In this document: in pieces, positions 4,903 through 9,802 of the stretch
Layout of the letters: each line of letters begins with the position of its first letter
Numbering within the stretch: the stretch's first letter is position 1
Origin: an uncultured Verrucomicrobiota bacterium
Lineage (GTDB): Bacteria; Verrucomicrobiota; Kiritimatiellia; CAIQIC01; Lenti-01
NCBI GenBank assembly: GCA_964647595.1
Contig: CAZYGH010000010.1
Location: 20,362-84,361 of the forward strand
Length of the DNA: 64,000 nt
Direction of reading: 5' to 3'
Notes under the pieces: generated by a model
What the model saw: the letters and a program-made list of their open reading frames with translations, nothing else
Told to the model about the DNA's origin: nothing
The model's database searches: none
Translations under genes and position numbers: made by a program

Positions 4903-5775
4903 ATGGCCACTTTACGATTCACCATGATCTTGAAATCGATTTTAACTCCACTTCTGCGGCGCTTTGTGCAGCTTGTTTCGCTGGTTGCGCTGAACAGCTC
5001 GCTGGCCAGCGGGCAGGCCAAGTGGCTGTGCATGCCGGTGATGAATTGTCATTCCTGTGCACTGGCGTGGTTTGCGTGCCCGATTGGGGTGTTTATTCAT
5101 TATGCGGGATATCGGGTATTCCCGTTTCTTGCGTTCGGTACGCTTTTGTTAGTGGGAGTGCTGTTGGGGCGATTCTTGTGTGGATGGGTGTGCCCGATGG
5201 GATTTTTGCAGGACTTGCTCTACAAGATTCCGGGCCGGAAACTCACCCTGCCCCGTTGGACAAAGTACATCAAGTACGTCCTTCTGGTGGTGACCGTGGT
5301 ATTGACACCCTTATGGTTTGGGGAAGATACCTTGTGGTCGTTCTGTCGCGGTTGTCCGGTTTCGGCGATGCAGGCGACGTTGCCCGGTCTGATTGGAGGG
5401 GAAGGCGGACCCTTGCCCCTGCGGACTCTCGTCAAATTGGGCATTTGGGTTGCGGTGTTGTTGCTGGTGGTGGTGAGCCGTCGTGGATTCTGTCGAGTGC
5501 TGTGTCCGATCGGCGCGTTGCTGGCGCCGTTTAATTGGATTAGCTTTTGGCGCGTGAAACCCGTGGAAGGGTGCGTTGGATGCAAAAAGTGCGACACCAC
5601 CTGTCCAACGCAATGCGCTCCTGCCCCTGAGATGATTGCGGGGCAAGCTCCCAGCCGCCAAACCGAATGCGTGGGTTGCAACGATTGTCGCAGCGGGTGT
5701 CCTGTGCGGAAAAAGAAACCTTCCAAAGGCCCCATTGCGCCGCCGCCGCCAAACATGGTAAAAGATCCAGCATGA
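4903..5775 (+). CDS. NapH/MauN-like membrane polyferredoxin (4 TM, CxxCP motifs, two C-terminal 4Fe-4S ferredoxin motifs)
   Basis: CGWVCPMGF and CRVLCPIGAL motifs in TM loops, plus CVGCKKCDTTCP and CVGCNDCRSGCP. Alternative start at ATG 4924. Its stop overlaps the start of the next gene (ATGA). Confidence 0.75.
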   Translation: MATLRFTMILKSILTPLLRRFVQLVSLVALNSSLASGQAKWLCMPVMNCHSCALAWFACPIGVFIHYAGYRVFPFLAFGTLLLVGVLLGRFLCGWVCPMGFLQDLLYKIPGRKLTLPRWTKYIKYVLLVVTVVLTPLWFGEDTLWSFCRGCPVSAMQATLPGLIGGEGGPLPLRTLVKLGIWVAVLLLVVVSRRGFCRVLCPIGALLAPFNWISFWRVKPVEGCVGCKKCDTTCPTQCAPAPEMIAGQAPSRQTECVGCNDCRSGCPVRKKKPSKGPIAPPPPNMVKDPA

Positions 5776-7757
5776 GCAGGTGGAAACATGGATTGATGAG
5801 GATGATGCCCCTCGCCATTTTGTTTGGCTTGCTGACGGGGGTGTCCGATGCGGCAACGTTTTCACTGGAATATCGCACGGATGGGAAATCTGCTGGATTC
5901 TCGTTGCCGCTGGGGGAAAGCGAAGTCCGTTTCAAGAAGGAACCCAACTACGTAGGTAAAGACGTGGTTCGGTGTGCCCTGTATGTCTCTCCCGATCAAA
6001 AAGAATTTATCGGATTTGCCTGCGATTCCGAAGGATCGACGTTGTATCTCGATTTGAATCGCAATCTGGATTTGACGGACGATCCGGAGGGTATCATTCA
6101 CTCGACCTCGGAAGGTTGGGGAAATTCTTTTGAACAGGTGGCCATCTCTGTTGAGCAAGAAGGCCGTCGCCGTGACATGCTGGTGGACATGACGATTTAT
6201 GGTGACCAATGGGGTCGATATGAGGTGAAGTCTTCATGGGAAAGCTCCTCGGTCCTCATTGGCGAGAAGACATTTCGAGTGTCCATTGTAGACGATGGAG
6301 ATGGTGTCATCACGGCGCAGGATGTCTTGTTTCTGGAACCGATCGAAGAATTCCAGGAAGAAGGTGCCGAAGGAATATCGGTGGAATTGAAGGCTCCGAC
6401 CACGTTGGTTCTCAATGGGTTGCCGTATGCATTGAACTACGCACTGAGTTCCGACGGGAAAGCGGTGGCATTGTCCGTCGATCCGAGATCCACCCCGTTG
6501 GTGGAGGTTGAGATGAAGGGGCATGGGGTTGAGCGCATTGTCATGCAGGACGAAGCCTTGGCCTCTGTATACTTGGGTCCGTCCTCCATCCTTCAGATTC
6601 CACCGGGAAACTATTACGGTGACGTATGGGTGCGGATGGGGGAAGGAAAGAAGAGCAGCTTGTGGAATGCCGGGAATGTTCCCCTTCGCGTCAAAGGTGG
6701 CTCGGGGCGGGAATCCTGGCTTGTGGGCGGGCCCATTGTCAGCAAACTGACCAGCTCGATTCCAAGCAATCGGATTCGGTTTGATCAAGCGACGATGGGC
6801 GCGGGTGGCGAAAAATATACGCCGGACAGTTTTTCAGGAGGGGCCATTGGTCAGCCGAAATTGCGTATCAAAAAAGCGGGCGAGGTCATCCACGTCGGCG
6901 AATTCGAGTATGGATGAGGCGGGACCTGTTCGTACTCATGGAGAGTACCTTTCAGTTTATTGGGTTCGTTAGAATGCTCGGTCTTTTTCGAAGGCGAGAA
7001 CGGGGACCTGATCACGTCCGAGCCCCTGATGGTCCACATTACGCTCTTCACCAAAGTGAAAGGTGTGTTGTTTTGGCTGGTTCTCCTGCCATTCCTGCTG
7101 TTGAAGGAAAACCGATCGCGCAAGGTTCTTTGGGCATTTTTGCCCTGTGCTGTTTGGCTTGGAATTGCGTTTGGACTCGAAATGGGTGTGGGCATACCCA
7201 GCGAAGTGATGGTTCCGGTGCCGATGATTTTATGCGGGCTATTATTGGCTGGCGCGCGTTTCCAGCGGTGGAAGGGTGGGGGCTCGCTTCTTGGGACGGT
7301 GTTGTTCGCCGCGCTCTTTCATGGGGTTTGGATGTATATGGGAAATATAGAAAATTTTCCATATTCCGCCATCGCTTCCGGGGTGTTGTTCCTGTTGGTG
7401 TTGGTTTCGCTTGTCCTTGCCCGACTGGCTTGTCGCGGAAAATATTCCGTGGTGAAGCTATCCCTCTTTCTGTTGCCCGTGGTTTTGGCGGCGACGGTGG
7501 TATTCGTTTTTGCCAGCGGGCTTCTGATCGCTCTGACACAAGGCGAATTGGGCAGCGCTATCGAGGCCGAGTTTCTTCTGGCGATGATCATGCCGATTGC
7601 GATGGCTGGGCTGATCGTTTACGGGATGCTGATGTCTTTCCTCTTGGTTCCGTTTTTGTCGGAATTTCATCGCGATCGTCTTTGCAACCTGTTGAAGCTA
7701 CGGCGGGATATTCCCCCGGTCCTCGAGCCGCCGCCGATGCCCTCCACACCATCTTGA
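5772..7757 (+). CDS. candidate selenoprotein, paralog 1: signal peptide + ~380-aa periplasmic domain ending FEYG-U(TGA 6915..6917)-GGTCSYSW, continuing in frame into a ~280-aa, 7-TM domain
   Basis: The ORF track splits it as 5667..6917 and 6960..7757; both are in the same frame with no other stop between them. ATG 5772 overlaps the upstream stop. The motif around the TGA is conserved with two paralogs, and a hairpin lies 14 nt after the TGA. Confidence 0.6.
6915..6950 (+). promoter_or_regulatory. SECIS-like element: UGA + 14-nt spacer + hairpin GUACUC-AUGGA-GAGUAC
   Basis: Perfect 6-bp stem at 6932..6948 with loop AUGGA. Spacing and loop are the same as in the two paralogs, whose stems differ by compensatory changes. 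Confidence 0.65.
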
Positions 7758-9026: not shown

Positions 9027-9802
9027 AGGTGGTGGGAATCGATGCGGGATCGCGGACGATCAAAATCGTCCTCTATGACGCGGAGCAACGGCGGGTGTTG
9101 GGCCGTCGCCTCTGCGACCAGGGCGTCCGGCAGGAAGCGCTTGCGGCGGAACAACTCGACGCGCTGTTGGCGGAGTTGGGGCTGGCTCGGAATCATCTCC
9201 GGCGCATCGTGGCCACGGGCTATGGACGGGCGGCACTTCCTTTCGTCCATGAAACCATCACGGAGATCACGTGCCATGCGCGCGGCGTTCGCGAGCAAAC
9301 GCCAGAGGCGGAGATGGTGATCGATATCGGGGGACAAGACAGCAAGGCCATCTGGATCGATTCGCACGGAGAGGTGCGGGATTTTGTGATGAATGAACGG
9401 TGTGCTGCAGGAACCGGGCGGTTTTTGGAAGTGCTGGCCGCTCGACTGAACATCGCTGTGAACGATCTTGGCGCTCAGGCGGCGGGGAGTGTTTCTCCGG
9501 TGCCGATCAATAGCACGTGCGTGGTGTTTGCCGAAACGGAAATTGTGGGATTGTTGGCTAACAACACAGACCCGAAAGACATTGCCGCCGGGGTATTGAA
9601 ATCGATGGCGGCACGCATGGCCTCGATGATCGGCCGTCGTGCCAAGGAACCCATTTTGCTGACTGGCGGAGTGGCGCGAGTTCATGGAATGGCCGATCGG
9701 TTGGCAGAGGCCATGGGTTGTCCGATTCGCATTGCGCCGGATCCAGAATATACGGGTGCGTTGGGTGCGGCGTTGCTGGCGGCGGCTGGCTTGTGCGCCT
9801 GA
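9023..9802 (+). CDS. CoA-substrate-specific enzyme activase (BadF/BadG/BcrA/BcrD / HgdC ATPase family)
   Basis: MKVVGIDAGSRTIKIV... acetate/sugar-kinase-like ATPase, and two Cys that would bridge the 4Fe-4S cluster. ATGA overlap with the upstream gene. Confidence 0.85.
   Translation: MKVVGIDAGSRTIKIVLYDAEQRRVLGRRLCDQGVRQEALAAEQLDALLAELGLARNHLRRIVATGYGRAALPFVHETITEITCHARGVREQTPEAEMVIDIGGQDSKAIWIDSHGEVRDFVMNERCAAGTGRFLEVLAARLNIAVNDLGAQAAGSVSPVPINSTCVVFAETEIVGLLANNTDPKDIAAGVLKSMAARMASMIGRRAKEPILLTGGVARVHGMADRLAEAMGCPIRIAPDPEYTGALGAALLAAAGLCA

Follow-up and report, generated by a model that had tools for sequence, protein, structure and literature searches.

A portable selenocysteine cassette carrying two uncatalogued selenoprotein families and two redox modules in an uncultured Verrucomicrobiota bacterium

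Described systems resembling the locus

The double-cubane cluster protein (DCCP) and its reductase DCCP-R of Carboxydothermus hydrogenoformans (6ENO, 7YYL) belong to the same family as the DCCP encoded here, NF040772 (NCBIfam 'double-cubane-cluster-containing anaerobic reductase'). The seven cluster cysteines are shared, and a gene for an HgdC-type ATPase with Cys127 and Cys166 follows directly after the DCCP gene here. The protein described here differs in its N-terminal Cys-Cys tail, which is subfamily-wide, in lying within a selA-selD-selB operon, and in having relatives flanked by a SAM methyltransferase and two HGD-D proteins. 2-hydroxyacyl-CoA dehydratase (HgdAB/HgdC) and benzoyl-CoA reductase (BcrBC/BzdNO) are of the same superfamily (PF06050, PF01869) and likewise use ATP to inject electrons at low potential, but the window (the whole analysed stretch of 64,000 nucleotides) has no gene for a partner alpha subunit, and CoA-pathway genes are absent nearby. 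A link between DCCP and selenium is already in the literature: of the 970 DCCPs to which NF040772 gives more than 400 bits, 955 come from SelD genomes (Haft & Gwadz, 10.1101/2022.07.06.499078), DCCP has been called 'provisionally linked to selenium metabolism' (PMC10418091), and the Slackia sel neighbourhood contains HgdB-like and activase genes (PMC5322559).

NapH/MauN (TIGR02163, NF007013; relatives NosR and CcoG) resemble the membrane polyferredoxin of the locus in having about four transmembrane helices, a pair of Cx3CP motifs and, towards the C-terminus, two CxxCxxCxxxCP [4Fe-4S] motifs. In contrast, the protein encoded here has six additional invariant cysteines (C-x5-C-x2-C-x6-CP and CxxCP), has no nap, mau or nos genes nearby, and invariably comes with a small CxxU selenoprotein, the pair standing immediately downstream of selB or selC. 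The selenocysteine-assisted organometallic (SAO) locus of Haft & Gwadz is likewise a multi-selenoprotein operon of anaerobes, often adjoining DCCP and activase genes, with selenoproteins cut at UGA in databases. The present operon differs: it contains none of the nine Sao families and includes the genes of the Sec machinery, and its selenoproteins, exported ones of beta-sandwich type and a CxxU protein anchored in the membrane, have a polyferredoxin as partner in place of an ABC transporter. Another sel-tied pair with a small redox-motif member is YedE/YedF (Lin et al. 2015, PMC5322559), a membrane protein with a small Cys-motif partner, whose genes adjoin selD in many bacteria, but the protein families are unrelated, the small partner here being a selenoprotein and the membrane partner carrying Fe-S clusters. 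Both selenoprotein families of the locus and the NapH-like pairing appear to be undescribed.

One operon from the tRNA-Sec gene to the activase

The genes (selC)-selA-selD-selB-CPTU-NapH-like-FEYG-U-DCCP-activase constitute one operon of nine co-directional genes, in which neighbours overlap or lie no more than 78 nt apart and no convincing internal terminator is present (Table 1). The first gene within the window is selA; the tRNA-Sec gene lies just upstream, outside it (L001 4161-4255, same organism). The operon is a portable selenocysteine cassette: besides the Sec-decoding machinery it encodes hitherto unrecognised members of two selenoprotein families that are in no catalogue, along with two redox modules, which include an iron-sulfur protein of the membrane and a reductase driven by ATP. 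Its distal half consists of the NapH-like, FEYG-U, DCCP and activase genes, which the earlier note had singled out as a candidate electron-transfer module; their positions, common strand and identities hold, as do the ATGA overlaps between the NapH-like stop and the paralog-1 start (5772-5775) and between the DCCP and activase genes (9023-9026). Directly upstream of them, selA, selD and selB (66-4620) are separated by one 8-base overlap and gaps of 3 and 9 bases. The selD product is a Cys form (..KAGCASK..) with an unusual N-terminal extension of about 55 aa holding three CxC pairs, conserved in L113/L114, and many relatives carry a C-terminal AhpD-like CxxC domain.

Table 1. Features of the cassette and of the two convergent genes beside it (window positions)
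Feature	Position	Strand	Details
selA	66..1454	+	TIGR00474 520.9 bits (cutoff 267.9); PF03841
selD, selenophosphate synthetase	1447..2634	+	TIGR00476 347.9 bits (cutoff 125)
selB, Sec-specific elongation factor	2644..4620	+	TIGR00475 267.4 bits (cutoff 242); SelB winged-helix and beta-barrel Pfam domains
CPTU, small candidate selenoprotein, 83 aa	4624..4881	+	between selB and NapH-like gene
CPTU SECIS-type hairpin	4890..4908	+	7-bp stem 4890-4896 / 4902-4908, loop CGUGC
NapH/MauN-superfamily membrane polyferredoxin, 290 aa	4903..5775	+	PF12801 (Fer4_5), E 1e-15
FEYG-U paralog 1	5772..7757	+	read-through translation; in-frame TGA 6915-6917
Paralog 1 SECIS hairpin	6932..6948	+	GUACUC-AUGGA-GAGUAC; 17 nt after U of UGA
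DCCP	7836..9026 (alternative ATG 7782)	+	NF040772 413.5 bits (cutoff 350)
ATP-dependent activase / DCCP reductase (HgdC/BadF family)	9023..9802	+	TIGR00241 228.5 bits (cutoff 125.4)
FEYG-U paralog 2	9809..11752	-	..GSFEYG-U(TGA 10091-10093)-GFSCSATW..; SECIS 10060-10076
FEYG-U paralog 3	11798..13897	-	..GSFEYG-U(TGA 12071-12073)-GFTCSATW..; SECIS 12040-12056

In both selenoprotein families, the recoding of UGA as Sec and the SECIS hairpins are borne out by comparison of the sequences. CPTU, predicted to be anchored by one N-terminal transmembrane helix, ends in ..KCPT-U(TGA 4873-4875)-M-stop(TAG 4879-4881), a CxxU motif with Sec in the penultimate position. The pattern CPT-TGA-(1-2 codons)-stop is kept in every orthologue found, and in an unbiased search of 1.84 billion proteins C[PL][TS] was the exact end of 24 of 25 representatives. 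The 3' arm of the hairpin includes the ATG of the NapH-like gene (4903), a downstream hairpin occurs in all lineages, with a G-rich loop and at equal distance from the UGA in at least 30 orthologues, and its geometry agrees with the published bacterial SECIS model (PMC13188914). For FEYG-U, TGA occupies the Sec site in 96 of 96 distinct members, followed by a conserved GG[TS]C.YSWRVP or GFSCSATW, while in 91 sequences 98.7% of the cells of the SECIS are paired, with double (compensatory) changes in five of six pairs, a pairing reached by none of 500 shuffles. Paralog 1 comprises a signal peptide, an exported all-beta domain of about 350 aa, the segment ..GEFEYG-U-GGTCSYSWRVP.. and a membrane domain of about six helices, its N-terminal part having an AF2 pLDDT of 89.4. 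Neither CPTU nor FEYG-U matched any Pfam or NCBIfam model.

The polyferredoxin had been described as NapH/MauN-type with CxxCP loops and two 4Fe-4S motifs. It is a Fer4_5 polyferredoxin with two CxxCxxCxxxCP [4Fe-4S] motifs and, by hydropathy, about four transmembrane helices, but the loops are mostly Cx3CP (C93-C97-P, C197-C201-P) with just one CxxCP (C148-C151-P), and NapH itself was rejected by NCBIfam cutoffs, TIGR02163 giving 52.5 bits where the NapH/MauN models require 213 (TIGR02163) and 234. Its subfamily has 18 invariant cysteines among 43 members. The six that are extra are C43, C49, C52, C59, C148 and C151; the four N-terminal ones fall outside the NapH profile match, and all six should lie in outward-facing loops, the topology of both this protein and CPTU being predicted from hydropathy and charge rules only.

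The protein previously called HgdB/BcrC-like does belong to the HgdB-like superfamily but is specifically a DCCP: its best PDB matches are 7yyl/6eno (phmmer, E 1e-59), with all seven ligand cysteines aligned. An HgdB or BcrC subunit was rejected for this gene, the equivalogs scoring 84.7 vs 453.8, 63.4 vs 421 and 54.9 vs 700. The tail, MSECCATNCCE.., keeps its CC in relatives. The activase, with Cys127 and Cys166, matches 4eht, 1hux and 7yyl_E, and no unrelated role is assigned to the DCCP pair.

Recurrence across phyla and separate links to sel genes

The order NapH-like, FEYG-U, DCCP, activase recurs in species-level loci of several phyla, as the earlier note had suggested checking, and since the same parts occur in the same order in several phyla, the arrangement is not due to chance. 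It is found in Kiritimatiellia/Verrucomicrobiota (L003, L012-L014; in L015 only FEYG-U, DCCP and activase), in Hydrogenedentota (L017), in a Nitrospiraceae-labelled MAG (L018) and in an unclassified bacterium (L028), with partial cassettes in Riflebacteria, Aminicenantes, Sumerlaeota and Planctomycetota, where some contigs end too early for more. A large share of the loci come from short contigs of MAGs or metagenomes, so that the absence of a gene is uncertain and some of the taxonomic labels may reflect mis-binning.

The two modules are also linked to sel genes separately. CPTU and NapH-like genes occur together in 18 of 19 loci, and the pair is always downstream of selB or selC, also where FEYG-U is absent; in L008, L035, L039 and L042 selC is directly followed by CPTU and the NapH-like gene. 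All four NapH-like relatives picked blind on long contigs stood directly after selB and a small CPT-UGA gene, FEYG-U adjoining only two of them. The DCCP subfamily, for its part, adjoins selD/selA/selB also in loci that lack a NapH-like gene: selD, selA or selB lies within 10 kb in 22 of 38 DCCP-relative loci of at least 10 kb, and a NapH-like gene in only 8 of those. The DCCP relatives show 61-72% identity, with activase followed directly by selD as the typical order; ahead of them lies a gene for a class I SAM methyltransferase, weakly ArsM-like (45 bits, below cutoff), and they are also flanked by two further HGD-D genes. This separate linkage in relatives ties each sub-module independently to the selenocysteine genes. 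Since CPTU/NapH-like without FEYG-U and DCCP without the NapH-like gene both remain sel-linked, the common thread of the cassette, judging from gene neighbourhoods, is selenium rather than paralog 1. The earlier idea of a module organised around paralog 1, on which the NapH-like protein and DCCP/activase would act, is thus not upheld; what survives is a membrane-spanning reductive function, plausible for the NapH-like protein with its six extra cysteines.

Proposed selenium handling and the competing readings

Since each module has its own link to the sel genes, selenium is the substrate that best fits the genomic evidence. We tentatively propose, at a probability of roughly 0.4, that the cassette combines an outward selenol/thiol relay with a cytoplasmic ATP-driven reduction giving selenide to SelD. 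Electrons would enter the NapH-like protein at its two cytoplasmic [4Fe-4S] clusters, cross via the Cx3CP motifs and the six extra cysteines, and pass to the C-terminal Cys-x-x-Sec of membrane-anchored CPTU and then, as a selenenylsulfide relay, to the invariant G-U-G-G-T-C loop of exported FEYG-U. In the cytoplasm, the ATP-hydrolysing activase would charge DCCP, which would then reduce, at very low potential, a small substrate held by the N-terminal Cys-Cys tail, so that oxidised, elemental or organic selenium could be captured and mobilised reductively as selenide for SelD. The specialised cysteine features that we counted for the selenium reading are the six extra cysteines of the NapH-like protein, the CC tail of DCCP and the CxC-rich extension of SelD, with the AhpD-like CxxC domain of many relatives. 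Selenoprotein genes often adjoin sel genes merely through dependence on the Sec machinery, and such dependence could explain the adjacency of CPTU/NapH-like and FEYG-U without any role in selenium supply. A supply system made of selenoproteins also involves some circularity, for which SelD forms that contain Sec offer a precedent. Also against the proposal, DCCPs are known as substrate reductases and are not known to exchange electrons with membrane proteins.

An alternative that we regard as unlikely is a single membrane-spanning chain around FEYG-U, in which low-potential electrons from DCCP/activase would flow through the NapH-like protein to the periplasmic Sec/Cys protein, acting on a non-selenium substrate such as a peroxide, a polysulfide or a glycan-linked group, with the sel genes adjacent only because Sec is needed. 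The four genes are co-transcribed here and co-conserved in several phyla, the Sec of FEYG-U is predicted in an exported domain beside a membrane domain, the extra invariant cysteines of the NapH-like protein fall in predicted outer loops, and GH127, GH42, CBM and porin genes neighbour FEYG-U in several loci. Against such a chain, the NapH-like/CPTU pair occurs without nearby DCCP (L024, L027, L124-L126), FEYG-U also occurs alone, and most DCCP-seeded loci combine DCCP/activase and sel genes without a NapH-like gene. Where Haft & Gwadz cite Jeoung & Dobbek, characterised DCCPs are described as reducing small molecules at their own cluster with no onward donation, and the co-occurrence of DCCP with SelD published for whole genomes does not depend on FEYG-U (10.1101/2022.07.06.499078).

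That co-occurrence (955/970) leads to another reading, which Haft & Gwadz give as a formal possibility (10.1101/2022.07.06.499078): DCCP may need SelD because its cluster carries a bridging selenium, as an [8Fe-8S-Se] analogue of [8Fe-9S]. The operon would then merely house two unrelated selenium users beside their supplier, with nothing flowing between DCCP and a separate periplasmic NapH-like/CPTU/FEYG-U system. The very frequent activase-selD adjacency and the separation of the two modules in other genomes agree with this, but the solved DCCP structures 6eno and 7yyl are described in the literature as 8Fe-9S clusters, no selenium-insertion factor is apparent in the cassette, and the CC tail together with the methyltransferase and two extra HGD-D genes of relatives resembles substrate handling more than cofactor maturation, making this reading quite improbable. 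Least probable of all, and drawn by analogy with the SAO locus, is a cassette for a chalcophilic metal or metalloid (Hg, As, Te or an organometallic), whose Sec/Cys motifs would bind the element while DCCP would reduce an organo-element compound. The SAO study takes vicinal Cys and Cys/Sec motifs as heavy-atom binding signatures, SAO loci adjoin DCCP and activase, and the methyltransferase preceding DCCP in relatives is weakly of ArsM type; set against this, the Sao families (no NCBIfam Sao model matched), MerB-like proteins, ABC transporter and efflux components are all absent, the cassette has no ars or mer genes, and its tightest linkage is with selD, selB and selC, not with resistance genes.

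The sel genes, the small selenoprotein and two further FEYG-U genes lie outside the set first flagged, and the earlier note also lacked the published DCCP-SelD co-occurrence. Paralogs 2 and 3 (9809-13897, minus strand) are convergent with the operon, and both have CBM48-like N-termini, paralog 2 with a short C-terminal tail. Elsewhere, some FEYG-U genes lie away from any sel, NapH-like or DCCP gene and neighbour GH127, GH42 and sugar transporters, which, taken with the CBM48-like N-termini, hints at a carbohydrate-related substrate and counts against the selenium reading.

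The flagged genes belong to one larger operon

The genes around FEYG-U paralog 1 are part of one operon, which is larger than the group originally flagged. Listing and translation of ORFs bear out the earlier description of four co-directional genes, encoding a NapH-like membrane polyferredoxin, paralog 1 (a member of the TGA-containing FEYG-U family), an HgdB-like protein and an activase, with ATGA overlaps joining the TGA stop of the NapH-like gene to the ATG of paralog 1 and the stop of the HgdB-like gene to the start of the activase gene. Upstream lie selA and selD, which overlap by 8 bases, then selB after a gap of 9 bases and a small gene after a further 3 bases, and on a longer contig of the same organism the tRNA-Sec gene (selC) is found just before selA. 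With these genes and the tRNA included, the operon therefore reads (selC)-selA-selD-selB-small gene-NapH-like-paralog 1-DCCP-activase, where DCCP is the double-cubane cluster protein encoded by the HgdB-like gene and the small gene is referred to as CPTU, so that selA, selB, selC and selD all stand in one operon with FEYG-U and CPTU genes. A convincing internal terminator was looked for within the operon and none was present. Two more FEYG-U paralogs lie on the minus strand and run towards it. Rfam, searched at gathering thresholds over window positions 1-15000, gave no family match.

Coordinates of features in the window and, where a locus handle (L) is given, in related genomic or metagenomic loci
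Feature	Position	Strand	Remark
selA	66-1454	+	above NCBIfam equivalog cutoff
selD	1447-2634	+	above NCBIfam equivalog cutoff
SelD N-terminal extension	1447-1620		about 55 aa
selB	2644-4620	+	above NCBIfam equivalog cutoff
CPTU ORF	4624-4875	+	83 aa, directly after selB
CPTU SECIS hairpin	4890-4908		
NapH-like gene	4903-5775	+	290 aa; Pfam Fer4_5, E 1e-15
ATGA overlap, NapH-like/paralog 1	5772-5775		
FEYG-U paralog 1	5772-7757	+	
Paralog 1, part before the TGA	5772-6914		exported domain, motif at residues ~91-105
FEYG-U TGA codons	6915, 10091, 12071		first in paralog 1 (6915-6917)
DCCP (HgdB-like)	7836-9026	+	NF040772
Activase	9023-9802	+	TIGR00241
FEYG-U paralogs 2 and 3	9809-13897	-	
OprB-type porin and peptidase S15 genes	14000-17047		
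Five-gene DCCP unit, L113	9098-13616		
Five-gene DCCP unit, L114	9094-13559		
Five-gene DCCP unit, L003	12041-16459		
GH127-like gene, L006/L007	5169-7598		beside FEYG-U
GH127-like gene, L008	6287-8656		beside FEYG-U

Two labels, NapH and HgdB/BcrC, had to be given up. The polyferredoxin has the structural features of NapH (four TM helices, two Cx3CP motifs and two C-terminal 4Fe-4S motifs), three of its helices being clear in a hydropathy scan and a weak fourth, at about residues 17-36, being read from the sequence and undetected by the scan; its motifs comprise two Cx3CP (C93x3C97P, C197x3C201P), one CxxCP and two CxxCxxCxxxCP (C224, C256). The name NapH fails both on score (52.5 bits against a cutoff of 213 for TIGR02163 and 51.4 against 234 for NF007013) and on gene context, as napA, napG, napB and napC are absent and the neighbours, both here and at every related locus, are selB, CPTU and FEYG-U. 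The protein belongs to a membrane polyferredoxin subfamily that is obligately paired with a selenoprotein and in which 18 Cys are invariant among 43 members. Twelve of these form the NapH-type motifs and the six others lie in C43-x5-C49-x2-C52-x6-C59-P and C148-x2-C151-P, the N-terminal four falling outside the stretch covered by the match to the NapH profile. If the topology is like that of NapH, all six would face outward.

The name HgdB/BcrC likewise fails on score (84.7 against 453.8, 63.4 against 421 and 54.9 against 700 bits) and on the lack of a partner subunit gene, the window having a single HGD-D gene and no alpha-type partner. Its product is instead a predicted member of the DCCP family: it reaches 413.5 bits against a cutoff of 350 for NCBIfam NF040772 ('double-cubane-cluster-containing anaerobic reductase'), its closest solved relatives are from Carboxydothermus hydrogenoformans (7yyl, 6eno; E 1e-59), all seven cluster cysteines (C48, C67, C86, C116, C277, C307 and C340) align with Cys of 7yyl_C, and the Cys spacings are close to the published motif. 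The subfamily has a vicinal-Cys tail at its N-terminus (M-x-x-C-C-G). The activase (TIGR00241, 228.5 against 125.4 bits) matches 7yyl_E and adjoins the DCCP gene as an HgdC-type ATPase; it keeps Cys127 (MNERCAAGTG) and Cys166 (INSTCVVFAE), which we take from HgdC to be the cysteines bridging the [4Fe-4S] cluster.

Two families of predicted selenoproteins

When paralog 1 is read through its TGA, the sequence GEFEYG-U-GGTCSYSWRVP is obtained, followed by about 50 exported residues and a membrane domain of about six helices. Among the database matches listed, 117 of 120 homologues end exactly at [FL]x[FYW]G, which is where gene callers stopped at the TGA. In 96 of 96 distinct genomic instances the codon at the Sec position is TGA, with a conserved GG[TS]C.YSWRVP or GFSCSATW downstream, and a Cys codon (TGC/TGT) at this position was found in 0 of the 96. 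Nearly all known selenoprotein families have Cys homologues, and a family without a Cys version is therefore unusual, though not disqualified. Downstream of the UGA there is a hairpin with a 6-bp stem at +18 to +34 and the loop RUGGN, 17 nt past the U of UGA. In 91 sequences 98.7% of cells are paired, and in five of six pairs both partners have changed. Covariation scores 0.456 against 0.106 after shuffling (matched in 0 of 500 shuffles), and slid registers drop to 24-60% pairing. This geometry agrees with the published bacterial SECIS model, in which the hairpin lies 16-37 nt from the UGA and G or U occupies the first two loop positions (PMC13188914). Paralog 1 and its relatives are accordingly annotated here as predicted selenoproteins.

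CPTU is predicted from its sequence to be a second selenoprotein. All orthologues end in K..CPT-TGA, one or two codons and a stop, and in an unbiased phmmer search of 1.84 billion representatives C[PL][TS] was the exact end of 24 of the 25 family members. A hairpin with a 6-8 bp stem and a G-rich loop lies at a fixed distance past the UGA (about +16 to +19) in all lineages, and also agrees with the SECIS model (PMC13188914). The protein has a single N-terminal TM helix and net-charge rules suggest an outward-facing C-terminus; judging from hydropathy and charge, the CxxU motif would therefore be on the outside of the membrane. Neither CPTU nor FEYG-U matched any Pfam or NCBIfam model or was found in the 2026 catalogue of prokaryotic selenoproteins, and together they add two new candidate families (Sec-only or Sec-ended, with a SECIS) that escape such models. 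The database entries inspected for the two families all break off at the UGA.

The ATG of the NapH-like gene lies within the 3' arm of the CPTU hairpin, so that the polyferredoxin could be translated under the control of SelB binding or of Sec read-through. The first in-frame ATG is also inside the hairpin in L026, L084, L008, L114, L055, L117 and L105, although automatic placement of this start relative to the hairpin is ambiguous in about half of the loci.

Some further observations concern FEYG-U itself. All long FEYG-U proteins share in their exported domain the invariant motif LYLDLNRNLDLTDDP, which is similar to a calcium-binding DxNxNxD loop, and the partner Cys of U-x3-C is missing from two type-2 copies (L003, L014). 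The structure of paralog 1 was predicted in two separately modelled halves, the C-terminal membrane half giving a poor model (pLDDT 57.3, 19 sequences). FEYG-U genes lacking sel, NapH-like or DCCP neighbours have a GH127 beta-L-arabinofuranosidase-like gene with an F5/8 type C domain directly upstream, in one Acidobacteria and one Planctomycetota locus, with SSF transporter, GH42 and CBM9 genes also nearby. Paralogs 2 and 3 carry a CBM48/AMPK-CBM-like N-terminal domain (E 9e-5) and are followed by porin and peptidase genes; their surroundings are possibly a carbohydrate or envelope context.

The cassette recurs across phyla and both redox modules are linked to sel genes

A scan seeded with FEYG-U, taking one genome per species, gave 32 loci, which were then searched by tblastn with the window proteins, presence and absence being called by tblastn and motif regular expressions. 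The cassette (the whole set from the sel genes to the activase) recurs across phyla, which rules out chance adjacency of its genes. NapH-like genes occur in 18 of the 32 loci, CPTU in 19, sel genes in 16 and DCCP with activase in 9, and CPTU and NapH-like genes are together in 18 of 19. Most of the related loci come from MAGs or metagenomes; an absence close to the end of a contig carries no information, and some taxonomic labels may be wrong.

Composition of the cassette in loci found with FEYG-U
Assignment	Loci	Genes found
Kiritimatiellia/Verrucomicrobiota	L003, L012-L014	complete gene order from selA to activase
Verrucomicrobiota	L015	only FEYG-U, DCCP, activase
Hydrogenedentota	L017	whole order
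Nitrospiraceae-labelled MAG	L018	whole order
Unclassified bacterium	L028	every part present, in altered order
Hydrogenedentota	L033, L036	FEYG-U, DCCP, activase; no sel genes within the stretch examined
Hydrogenedentota, Riflebacteria, Aminicenantes, Sumerlaeota	L026, L019, L023, L038	sel-CPTU-NapH-like-FEYG-U; contig ends before DCCP could show
Unclassified and other MAGs	L022, L024, L027, L040	CPTU-NapH-like-FEYG-U, no DCCP within the stretch examined; selB in L022, selA, selD and selB in L024

Searches in the reverse direction link both redox modules independently to sel genes. Four NapH-like relatives (54-59% identity) were picked blind from long contigs, and all four directly follow selB and a CPT-UGA gene, with FEYG-U nearby in two and HGD-D with activase in one. 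CPTU and the NapH-like gene also come directly after selC, with the other sel genes elsewhere, in one Planctomycetota locus and in loci of Verrucomicrobiae. A metagenome scan seeded with DCCP gave more than 591 relatives, the best 80 showing 61-72% identity. The relatives are encoded in a core unit, methyltransferase-DCCP-HGD-D-HGD-D-activase. Very often selD comes next, frequently as a fusion with an AhpD-like CxxC domain, and selA, selB and FEYG-U proteins of a short type (~215 aa) often come before the unit. Of the 38 loci that span 10 kb or more, 22 have sel genes, 16 the FEYG-U motif and 8 NapH-like genes. Both modules thus have a link of their own to the sel genes.

The five genes of the unit encode a class I SAM methyltransferase (268 aa, with weak matches to the DVU_1556 family and ArsM-like models), DCCP, two divergent HGD-D proteins (~330 and ~460 aa) and the activase. 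In the window, which has lost the methyltransferase and the two extra HGD-D genes, the module is reduced to DCCP and activase, as it is in L013-L015, L017, L028 and L036.

Possible roles in selenium metabolism

The cassette is a selenoprotein operon with an associated DCCP, most of whose parts are uncharacterised. A link between DCCPs and selenium is not new: 955 of 970 NF040772 proteins scoring above 400 bits occur in SelD-encoding genomes, and it has been proposed that they process selenium compounds or carry a selenium-bridged cluster (Haft & Gwadz, 10.1101/2022.07.06.499078); the DCCP has been described as 'provisionally linked to selenium metabolism' and drawn in clusters with selABCD (Kountz & Balskus, PMC10418091); and HgdB-like and activase genes appear in a Slackia sel neighbourhood in a 2015 table (PMC5322559). 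For the tight activase-selD adjacency, the FEYG-U and CPTU families and the NapH-like subfamily, no description was found in the literature searched.

The presence of DCCP and activase inside a selenocysteine operon, with relatives directly beside selD in many metagenomic loci, leads to a concrete hypothesis of ATP-driven reduction of selenium compounds or, alternatively, of a selenium-containing DCCP cluster. In our tentatively preferred joint reading, with a probability of about 0.4, the NapH-like protein would send electrons from its cytoplasmic Fe-S clusters by way of its Cys motifs to the CxxU tail of CPTU and on to the G-U-G-G-T-C loop of exported FEYG-U proteins, DCCP would carry out an ATP-driven low-potential reduction in the cytoplasm, and selenium would be the substrate common to both modules, which would turn it into selenide for use by SelD. 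An ATP-driven reductase would suit the Se(0)/HSe- couple, which is very negative. Such a supply would explain how anaerobes in selenium-poor sediments feed SelD; should the reading fail, what is left is a widespread and unstudied Sec-dependent envelope redox system. The cassette offers a direct experimental handle on the physiological role of DCCPs.

Other readings have to be weighed against this one. One is a single electron-transfer chain around paralog 1, as in the earlier note, here taken to act on a substrate other than selenium. The interpretation in the note is borne out in part: the co-conservation of the gene set that it called for is present, as parts recur together across species-level loci, and FEYG-U genes adjoining GH127, GH42 and CBM genes speak for the single chain; it is weakened because the modules separate in other loci, and we consider it unlikely. 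That the DCCP carries a selenium-bridged cluster, as in the second of the two published proposals, and merely accompanies an unrelated periplasmic selenoprotein system seems quite unlikely. A role in handling metals or metalloids, as proposed for the selenocysteine-assisted organometallic (SAO) locus, is improbable. As a label, SAO locus fails, since none of its NCBIfam models (SaoL, SaoA/B/P, SaoC, SaoT, SaoD, SaoE, SaoX) was matched by any cassette protein.

The selenium-supply reading can be carried further, to a complete and horizontally mobile acquisition pathway in which the Sec/Cys loop of FEYG-U would capture environmental selenium, the NapH-like protein and its CxxU partner would release it reductively at the membrane, and the Cys-Cys-tailed DCCP, powered by ATP through its activase, would reduce elemental or organic selenium at very low potential to selenide for SelD. 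This extension is doubtful; were it true, DCCPs would have their first physiological substrate, and the reductive step that is missing ahead of selenophosphate synthesis in anaerobes would be found.

The SelD of the window has an N-terminal extension with three CxC pairs (LGHCVCDPKKPCPCDVFKAQDVCLCAGE), which is kept in cassette SelDs of distant lineages (L113, L114), and many of these also have a C-terminal AhpD/CMD domain bearing a CxxC motif.
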